Shown in pieces: positions 1-3,412 of a stretch of 3,412 nucleotides of DNA (position 1 is the stretch's first letter; each line of letters opens with the position of its first letter). Below the pieces are notes generated by a model. That model saw nothing but the letters and a program-made list of their open reading frames with translations. It made no database searches and was not told the origin of the DNA. This DNA comes from Escherichia phage BZ13. Position numbers and translations under genes: made by a program. The stretch lies in the sequence record FJ483837.1. One strand, written 5' to 3'.

Positions 1-82
1 GTTTTGCAAGCGACTCATTTCTGCAGTCTTTTCACCATGCCGTTAGGTTTAGATGACGGTATATCCATATACCGGAGGATCT
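1..82 (+). other. 5' untranslated leader, probably 5'-truncated
   Basis: No convincing ORF before the maturation gene; the frame of the maturation ORF is closed by TAG at 50-52. The window begins GTTTTGC rather than the GGG expected at the 5' end of MS2-like genomes, suggesting missing 5' nucleotides. Confidence 0.5.
57..74 (+). promoter_or_regulatory. Stem-loop next to the maturation-gene ribosome binding site
   Basis: CGGTATA (57-63) is the exact reverse complement of TATACCG (68-74), loop TCCA (64-67). The 3' arm abuts/overlaps the Shine-Dalgarno GGAGG (74-78) upstream of ATG 83. Functional role is inferred by analogy to structure-controlled maturation-gene translation in MS2. Confidence 0.35.
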
Positions 83-1664: not shown

Positions 1665-1855
1665 TGGGTCTGAAAGCAAAACATAAGGAAAACCTATGTT
1701 CCGATTCACAGAGATCGAAAAGACTCTATGTATGGATCGCACTCGCGATTGTGCTGTCCGATTTCACGTCTATCTTCAGTCATTGGATATGGGGTCTTCT
1801 GATCCTCATTCTCCAGACTTTGATGGACTTGCCTACCTTCGTGATGAGTGTTTAA
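1664..1855 (+). CDS. lys: Lysis protein (MS2 L-like single-gene lysis protein), 63 aa, +1 frame overlapping coat stop and replicase 5' region
   Basis: ATG 1664-1666 shares its A with the coat stop codon TAA 1662-1664 (UAAUG). Basic N-terminus (KAKHK...RSKR) is followed by a hydrophobic segment LYVWIALAIVLSDFTS that closely matches the MS2 L segment LYVLIFLAIFLSKFTN, including the conserved Leu-Ser dipeptide (codons at 1754-1759). Position between coat and replicase in a different frame is canonical for MS2-like phages. Confidence 0.8.
   Translation: MGLKAKHKENLCSDSQRSKRLYVWIALAIVLSDFTSIFSHWIWGLLILILQTLMDLPTFVMSV
1681..1699 (+). promoter_or_regulatory. Translational operator hairpin (coat-protein binding site) containing the replicase start codon
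   Basis: ACAUAAGGAAAACCUAUGU: stem 1681-1685 paired with 1695-1699, unpaired A at 1686, G1687-C1694 and G1688-C1693, loop AAAA 1689-1692. The replicase AUG (1696-1698) is in the 3' arm. Same architecture as the MS2 operator ACAUGAGGAUUACCCAUGU (7 bp stem, bulged A, 4-nt loop), with A rather than U at loop position -5. Confidence 0.8.
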
Positions 1856-3294
1856 CTAAACATCCTTCACTAGGAAACAGTAATTCGGATGCACGCCGTA
1901 AGGAATTGGCATATGCCAAACTTATGGATAGTGATCAAAGATGCAAAATCCAAAACAGTAACGGATACGACTACTCTCACATCGAAAGTAGCGTACTGAG
2001 TGGTATACTCAAGACTGCTCAGGCCCTTGTGGCGAACTTGCTTACGGGTTTTGAATCTCACTTCCTGAACGATTGTTCATTCTCCAATGGAGCCTCACAA
2101 GGGTTCAAGTTGCGGGATGCAGCGCCGTTTAAGAAGATCGCTGGGCAAGCAACCGTTACAGCTCCTGCTTATAACATTGCCGTGGCCGCCGTTAAAACGT
2201 GCGCGCCGTGGTATGCTTATATGCAGGAAACGTATGGCGATGAAACCAGATGGTTTCGTCGGGTATACGGCAACGGTTTGTTTTCTGTTCCGAAGAACAA
2301 TAAAATAGATCGGGCTGCCTGTAAGGAGCCTGATATGAATATGTACCTTCAGAAGGGGGCGGGATCTTTTATAAGAAAACGCCTTCGCTCCGTCGGTATA
2401 GATCTTAACGATCAAACGTGCAATCAGGAATTAGCCCGACTTGGCAGCATTGATGGTTCACTCGCTACTATTGATCTTAGTAGCGCTAGTGATTCTGTCT
2501 CTGACCGCCTTGTCTGGGATTTACTTCCGCCACACGTTTATTCATACCTCGCTCGCATCCGTTCATCGTTCACTATGATCGATGGTCGGTTGCACAAGTG
2601 GGGCCTGTTTTCTACTATGGGAAACGGCTTTACATTCGAACTCGAGTCCATGATTTTCTGGGCTTTGAGTAAGAGTGTTATGCTGTCCATGGGTGTTACT
2701 GGCTCATTAGGCATCTACGGTGATGATATAATCGTCCCCGTTGAGTGTGCCCCAACTCTCCTTAAGGTACTATCCGCTGTGAACTTTCTTCCTAATAAGA
2801 AGAAGACGTTCACTACGGGTTACTTTCGTGAAAGTTGTGGTGCTCACTTCTTTAAAGGTGCCGACATGAAACCTTTTTACTGCAAGCGGCCAATGGAAAC
2901 CCTTCCCGATGTCATGTTGCTATGCAACAGGATAAGGGGTTGGCAGACCGTTGGTGGAATGTCAGATCCGCGGCTCTTTCCTATTTGGAAGGAGTTTGCT
3001 GATATGATTCCGCCGAAGTTTAAGGGTGGATGCAACCTGGATCGCGATACTTACCTCGTTTCACCGGATAAACCTGGTGTCACATTGGTTCGAGTCGCTA
3101 AGGTACGTTCTGGTTTTAACCATTCGTTCCCGTACGGCCATGAAAATGGTCGCTACGTCCACTGGTTGCATATGGGATCGGGAGAAGTTCTCGAGACCAT
3201 ATCCTCCGCCAGGTTTAGGTGCAAACCTAACTCGGAATGGAGAACACAGATCCCTCTATTTCCTCAGGAATTAGAGGCCTGCGTTCTCTCCTGA
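1696..3294 (+). CDS. rep: RNA-dependent RNA replicase, beta subunit (532 aa)
   Basis: Long + strand ORF ending TGA 3292-3294. Catalytic YGDD motif at nt 2716-2727 within GIYGDDIIVP; AAGGA (1685-1689) lies 6 nt upstream of the ATG. Last and largest gene of the levivirus order, with length close to the MS2 replicase. Confidence 0.95.
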   Translation: MFRFTEIEKTLCMDRTRDCAVRFHVYLQSLDMGSSDPHSPDFDGLAYLRDECLTKHPSLGNSNSDARRKELAYAKLMDSDQRCKIQNSNGYDYSHIESSVLSGILKTAQALVANLLTGFESHFLNDCSFSNGASQGFKLRDAAPFKKIAGQATVTAPAYNIAVAAVKTCAPWYAYMQETYGDETRWFRRVYGNGLFSVPKNNKIDRAACKEPDMNMYLQKGAGSFIRKRLRSVGIDLNDQTCNQELARLGSIDGSLATIDLSSASDSVSDRLVWDLLPPHVYSYLARIRSSFTMIDGRLHKWGLFSTMGNGFTFELESMIFWALSKSVMLSMGVTGSLGIYGDDIIVPVECAPTLLKVLSAVNFLPNKKKTFTTGYFRESCGAHFFKGADMKPFYCKRPMETLPDVMLLCNRIRGWQTVGGMSDPRLFPIWKEFADMIPPKFKGGCNLDRDTYLVSPDKPGVTLVRVAKVRSGFNHSFPYGHENGRYVHWLHMGSGEVLETISSARFRCKPNSEWRTQIPLFPQELEACVLS

Positions 3295-3343
3295 TAGTAT
3301 CAGGACCTCCCCGGATGGGGTGGGTGTGACCGAAAGGCCACTA

Positions 3344-3360
3344 TGGGGGTGAATCCCCCA
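3344..3360 (+). other. 3' UTR hairpin (6 bp G/C-rich stem, UGAAU loop)
   Basis: UGGGGG (3344-3349) pairs with CCCCCA (3355-3360), loop 3350-3354; exact complementarity read from the sequence. Confidence 0.6.
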
Positions 3361-3375
3361 CCGCCCAAAAGGCGG
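3361..3375 (+). other. 3' UTR hairpin (5 bp stem, CAAAA loop)
   Basis: CCGCC (3361-3365) pairs with GGCGG (3371-3375), loop 3366-3370. Confidence 0.55.
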
Positions 3376-3380
3376 TTTTA

Positions 3381-3407
3381 GGTGACTAGTTTGCTTGGCT
3401 AGTCACC
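3381..3407 (+). other. 3'-terminal hairpin preceding the single-stranded ACCCA tail
   Basis: GGTGACTAG (3381-3389) is the exact reverse complement of CTAGTCACC (3399-3407), loop 3390-3398; followed by ACCCA (3408-3412). Analogous to the terminal hairpin of the MS2 3' domain. Confidence 0.65.
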
Positions 3408-3412
3408 ACCCA

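Follow-up and report, generated by a model that had tools for sequence, protein, structure and literature searches.

Motif C YGDD in the predicted replicase beta-subunit of a GA-like Emesvirus japonicum genome

Genome layout and source phage

We have analyzed a stretch of 3,412 nt (the window, by which we mean this whole stretch at its full length). The maturation, coat, lysis and replicase genes follow one another in this order on its plus strand, with the lysis gene being an overlapping one, and the lengths of the four products (Table 1) are of the GA type. All four plus-strand open reading frames (ORFs) matched levivirus Pfam families. The annotation of phage GA could be carried over by shifting every coordinate by 53 nt, and the gene order is the same.

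Table 1. Genes, signals and conserved replicase blocks of the window
Feature	Coordinates (nt)	Strand	Evidence
Partial 5' untranslated region	1..82	+	Window nt 1 corresponds to GA nt 54
Maturation (A) protein gene, 390 aa	83..1255	+	Pfam Phage_mat-A, E 5e-62; identical to ACT66717.1; GA annotation
Coat protein gene, 130 aa	1272..1664	+	Pfam Levi_coat, E 1.5e-38; identical to ACT66718.1
Lysis gene, 63 aa	1664..1855	+	Pfam Phage_MS2_lysis, 29.3 bits; overlaps the replicase start
Coat-protein operator hairpin holding the replicase AUG (1696-1698) in its 3' arm	1680..1700	+	GA annotation; folding
Replicase beta-subunit gene, 532 aa plus stop	1696..3294	+	Pfam RNA_replicase_B; identical to ACT66720.1
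Fingers/motif F-like basic block VPKNNKIDRAACKEP, aa 198-212	2287..2331	+	Alignments; also nearly nucleotide-invariant
Motif A block ATIDLSSASDS, aa 257-267, with D260 as the third catalytic carboxylate	2464..2496	+	Qbeta alignment
Motif B block STMGNGFTFELES, aa 306-318	2611..2649	+	Invariant in the alignment with MS2; pairs with Qbeta SSMGNGYTFELES
Motif C block GIYGDDIIVP, aa 339-348	2710..2739	+	Translation; alignment
YGDD core of RdRp motif C, Y341 G342 D343 D344	2716..2727	+	Direct translation of TACGGTGATGAT
Motif E-like block FRESCGAHFF, aa 377-386	2824..2853	+	Alignments
3' untranslated region ending ...ACCACCCA, start of minus-strand synthesis	3295..3412	+	Alignment; folding

The source of the window was sought with megablast in a collection of 50,697 phage records that lacked the window's own nucleotide record. 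Phage GA matched across the entire window with 94.5% nucleotide identity, and 99-100% of the window was also covered by BZ13 strain DL20 (94.3%) and by KU1 and T72 (85-86%). The match to MS2 was confined to a 400-nt replicase stretch, corresponding to 12% of the window, with ~74% identity. The replicase, coat and maturation proteins were letter-for-letter identical to deposited proteins of Escherichia phage BZ13 (accessions in Table 1). The protein numbers that come directly after the window's ACT66717, ACT66718 and ACT66720, namely ACT66721-24, belong to strain T72 (FJ483838). In the published strain list, FJ483837 is the genogroup II strain DL10, recovered from mussel at the Tijuana River, CA (Table 1 of PMC3499819), and DL10 is described in the same work as a cultured, plaque-forming environmental isolate (PMC3499819). 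The sequence matches identify the window as a GA-like, genogroup II F-specific ssRNA coliphage of the species Emesvirus japonicum, and we infer that it is almost certainly the deposited genome of strain DL10, FJ483837.

The start codon of the maturation gene is preceded by a GGAGG at 74-78. A mechanical ORF list placed the start at the in-frame ATG 53, which would give a product of 400 aa; this was rejected, the real start being ATG 83, from which the product equals the deposited protein.

The operator hairpin at the start of the replicase gene is annotated in GA as "pot. binding site coat protein" (GA 1733-1753) and is homologous to the MS2 operator. It folds at -4.9 kcal/mol (z -2.6) and is identical in all five group II genomes. 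By analogy with MS2 and GA, coat-protein binding at this element represses translation of the replicase. An Rfam scan of the window (E<=1) returned the MS2 operator at 1679-1699 as a sub-threshold match (18.1 bits vs 40), as well as a snoRNA match that we consider spurious; no curated family was found over the YGDD region in the same scan. Upstream of the hairpin, the coat stop codon and the lysis AUG share bases (UAAUG at 1662-1666). This lysis start is of the GA type, whereas KU1 and T72 differ by an insertion after the coat stop and by a UUG start. GA also has a lysis-control stem-loop, annotated a short distance ahead of the coat stop; the corresponding window segment, 1630-1660, folded no better than its shuffled versions (z -0.27).

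The YGDD motif of the replicase beta-subunit

The initial annotation had described an in-frame and intact YGDD at 2716-2727. Translation confirmed this: the four codons lie in the frame of ATG 1696 ((2716-1696) mod 3 = 0), as codons 341-344 of the 532-aa ORF, and the only stop codon in 1696-3294 is the terminal one. Two checks had been suggested together with that description, a search of the 532-aa protein against RdRp profiles and its alignment to the MS2 and Qbeta replicases. The profile search returned Pfam PF03431 (RNA_replicase_B) with 727.5 bits, far above the cut-off of 25 (E 1.2e-218), in a match spanning aa 18-505 and profile positions 14-514 of 540. In the alignments, YGDD fell on YGDD in both phages. 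When compared with PDB sequences using phmmer, the protein matched the Qbeta beta-subunit (3MMP_G, 4R71, 4Q7J, 3AGP and others) with E ~5e-65 over 405 residues (aa 39-443). The pairing joined "ygddiivp" of the window to "ygddiilp" of Qbeta and "atidlssasds" to "atvdlsaasds".

The catalytic palm carboxylates of Qbeta replicase are D273, D358 and D359, which coordinate two Mg2+ in an initiation complex on a CCA-3' template (PMC4200798). Residues D260, D343 and D344 of the window aligned with these three positions; since the Qbeta SEQRES index equals the literature number plus one, D260 pairs with SEQRES position 274, that is, with D273. D343 and D344 also aligned with D341 and D342 of MS2, and an MS2 replicase carrying D341S/D342V shows no catalytic activity when assayed cell-free (PMC6847885). 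In an alignment of nine sequences (the window, GA, KU1, MS2 and five metagenomic relatives), G339, I340 and Y341-I346 were invariant. The motif A block is likewise invariant in GA-like strains and MS2, with its codons varying synonymously. The block letters B, E and F are putative and were assigned by us on the basis of general knowledge of RdRps. The conserved palm and fingers blocks are all intact in the window replicase.

An AlphaFold2 model built from the same shallow nine-sequence alignment was poor (mean pLDDT 40, pTM 0.39); locally, this poor model placed a strand-turn-strand around YGDD (E339-341 and E344-348) with pLDDT 67-84. Hence, it is the 405-residue homology to the solved Qbeta chains that leads us to predict a palm fold for the replicase. 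The alignments argue that YGDD is a genuine and intact catalytic motif C of an RNA replicase beta-subunit.

Four-residue motifs can occur by chance, and we have considered whether YGDD arose in this way in a non-polymerase protein. For a protein with the composition of the replicase, GDD alone is expected 0.15 times. The full YGDD is expected only 0.005 times in 532 aa of the same composition, and was seen in 98 of 20,000 shuffles. Chance is hardly relevant here because the motif falls on the very column in which the homologous replicases of GA, KU1, MS2 and Qbeta carry their YGDD; the protein is unambiguously a levivirus (Fiersviridae) replicase, and the PF03431 and Qbeta matches together with this column rule the chance origin out, so that we give it no weight at all. 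Across the six frames, GDD recurs just once, at 2731-2739 of the minus strand; no ORF of at least 40 aa covers it, and it is coincidental.

Comparison with characterized replicases placed the window closest to the group II strains. The GA replicase (P07393 / CAA27499.1) shares 96.4% amino acid identity with that of the window and has the same length, gene position and overlaps, whereas the other Emesvirus japonicum replicases are 97.7% (DL20), 90.0% (KU1) and 90.4% (T72) identical, all with 532 aa. YGDD, the motif A, B, E-like and F-like blocks and the operator hairpin are identical to those of the window in all four strains. The 12-53 amino acid replacements that separate the window from them fall outside the catalytic blocks, with the exception of I340, beside YGDD, which is V in DL20.

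MS2 belongs to a different genogroup and to the species Emesvirus zinderi. Its replicase (YP_009640127.1) is 53% identical to that of the window and retains as identical blocks GIYGDDII, TIDLSSASDS, STMGNGFTFELES, FRESCGAH and VPKNNKIDRAACKEPDMNMYLQKG. Its 545 aa include 19 extra residues inserted toward the C terminus (alignment columns 459-477), and 2 residues are deleted near aa 180. The Qbeta replicase (genus Qubevirus, 589 aa) has N- and C-terminal parts that do not align to the window, but conserves YGDD, the motif A aspartate, SxMGNGxTFELES and FRESCG. The right-hand fold has been solved for this enzyme, and the two-metal mechanism with D273, D358 and D359 also comes from it (PMC4200798).

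Based on these data, we estimate with a probability of about 97% that nt 2716-2727 encode the motif C YGDD core of a GA-like Emesvirus japonicum replicase beta-subunit. This is a textbook catalytic motif in a phage replicase that has already been deposited and annotated, and it is already known. If the enzyme works like its Qbeta and MS2 counterparts, D343 and D344, together with D260 of motif A, would bind the two Mg2+ that catalyze nucleotidyl transfer, and the replicase would initiate de novo at the CCA-3' end of each strand. [quoted passage not shown] RdRp activity with these factors is known for Qbeta and has been presumed, or shown in vitro, for MS2 (PMC4200798, PMC6847885); for the GA-type enzyme, dependence on host factors is assumed by analogy. 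Late in infection, a coat-protein dimer on the operator hairpin may then repress replicase translation.

Selection on the replicase gene and completeness of the record

The replicase has 532 aa in the window, GA, DL20, KU1 and T72, with neither indels nor frameshifts among them. The window and GA genes differ at 81 nucleotides, 59 of which are at third codon positions. The dN/dS values of the window gene were 0.087 relative to GA, 0.040 to DL20, 0.121 to KU1 and 0.135 to T72, which points to strong purifying selection on the replicase gene. The maturation and coat genes behaved like the replicase (dN/dS 0.035-0.085). Within YGDD itself, the codons vary among strains only synonymously (TAC/TAT, GGT/GGG/GGA and GAT/GAC). 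Around the motif, 8 of the 15 codons for identical residues differ synonymously from MS2, the gene-wide figure being 55%. Since synonymous change near YGDD is normal, the motif is kept by selection at the protein level. The initial annotation had also concluded that the replicase is functional rather than degraded, and the full length, the lack of indels, the dN/dS of 0.04-0.135 and the intact blocks are all in favor of that.

Even with an intact motif, the recorded replicase might be non-functional through substitutions elsewhere, for instance, through cloning or RT-PCR errors. The source laboratory sequenced cDNA clones (PMC3499819), and some replacements are confined to the window or rare. 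Most of what we have found speaks against such damage. The window-specific replacements all avoid the conserved A-C, E-like and F-like blocks, the dN/dS relative to the closest strains is 0.04-0.09, the strain was grown as a plaque-forming isolate (PMC3499819), and some of the replacements recur in independent contigs. We regard a replicase inactivated in this manner as very improbable, and continue to read the gene as intact.

The individual replacements are as follows. N61 (nt 1876-1878) occurs only in the window, with D in seven other GA-like sequences and S in MS2. N160 (nt 2173-2175) is also restricted to the window, with D in six GA-like sequences, G in contig P0013 and R in MS2. Two rare residues, C242 and S99, recur in the independent ENA contig P0002, and M32 of the window replicase recurs in contig P0011.

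The two ends of the window differ in completeness. Nothing is missing at the 3' end (...GGCTAGTCACCACCCA), which matches that of GA, KU1, T72 and DL20 exactly; MS2 terminates in the same ACCACCCA. Folding showed strong structure in the 3' untranslated region (-57.2 kcal/mol, z -3.8). The part played by CCA-3' in initiation is taken over from Qbeta structures (PMC4200798). At the 5' end, alignment revealed that the terminal 53 nt are absent relative to GA, including the GG-start hairpin region of GA and KU1. If the plus strand lacks its 5' terminus, the minus strand copied from it would have no initiation site; with 53 nt missing, the recorded sequence thus falls short of a full replicon.

Such a deletion could in principle be natural, with the window representing a 5'-deleted, replication-defective RNA that kept an intact replicase gene. 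The window does begin without the hairpin region and the 5' GG(G/U)... end, and the minus strand would have its 3' initiation site in the complement of the missing end, if the CCA-3' initiation of Qbeta (PMC4200798) is taken as the guide. Against this, the record of the sister strain T72, which belongs to the same study, lacks another 36 nt at its start and its description nonetheless says complete genome, which suggests incomplete determination of 5' ends. In addition, the four ORFs, the operator and the 3' end are all intact, and the phage was a cultured isolate (PMC3499819). A naturally deleted RNA is accordingly given very little credence. Because T72 is shorter still and the strain was cultured, the truncation most likely belongs to the record, that is, to an incomplete 5' end determination, and not to the biology of the phage.

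This bears on a further proposal of the initial annotation, according to which the intact motif supported a replication-competent genome. The part that concerns the replicase gene stands, as the gene is intact. The motif alone cannot show competence, which requires an intact motif C but other things as well, and the record is 53 nt short. For reverse genetics or replicon design, the record thus lacks 53 nt at the 5' end, and motif integrity should not be equated with replicon completeness. For annotation, the value of the result is that it confirms the window as a bona fide levivirus genome of the GA type whose polymerase is intact, and shows that the initial annotation could recognize a replicase from the bare letters; it has little value beyond that.

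A separate peculiarity was noticed at the 5' end of the DL20 record (FJ483839). Except for two additional T, its nt 1-84 equal the 5' leader of MS2, and they join GA-like sequence at ACCATGCCGTTAGG. The DL20 record is a group I/group II chimera, which could have been generated either in the laboratory (primer, contamination) or by natural recombination.

Nucleotide-level conservation within the replicase gene

Approximately 360 nt upstream of YGDD, synonymous change is strongly suppressed across Emesvirus in replicase codons 195-221 (nt 2278-2358, the VPKNNKIDRAACKEPDMNMY block). Only 2279-2357 contained 30-nt windows with at least 90% of the columns identical in six Emesvirus genomes including MS2, the genome mean being 48%. 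In codons 195-221, 3 of 23 differ synonymously from MS2, vs 55% gene-wide; the hypergeometric P of 1.7e-5, which is uncorrected, was the lowest of all 27-codon windows. Nucleotide identity over 2278-2358 was 91% with phage fr, 89% with a sludge ssRNA phage and 77-80% with soil ssRNA phages.

A hairpin was predicted at 2309-2334 by RNAalifold over 2260-2370. The predicted hairpin is invariant, hence there is no covariation to test, and the single-sequence fold of the 2260-2370 region gave a z of -1.3. In the text of an MS2 packaging-signal paper, no coordinates near the invariant stretch 2260-2370 were found. We tentatively consider that codons 195-221 carry an undescribed cis-acting RNA element over the coding sequence, for example, the predicted hairpin, although we think this rather unlikely. 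Such an element might be an internal binding site for the replicase, S1 or coat protein, or the partner of a long-range pairing. The suppression at 2278-2358 could also simply be extreme protein plus codon constraint.

Two long stop-free stretches of the minus strand were evaluated as possible genes and rejected. The first, of 148 codons (35-478), is not kept in KU1. The second, of 111 codons (2098-2430), is present in GA and DL20 and lost in KU1 and T72, and most probably just reflects how codons are used on the plus strand.

Among the five group II strains, two further stretches outside the lysis overlap, 1909-1971 and 2116-2166, run for 21 and 17 codons, respectively, without nucleotide change. 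The longest unchanged run, of 23 codons (1720-1788), lies inside the lysis overlap and was equalled in 1 of 5000 shuffles.
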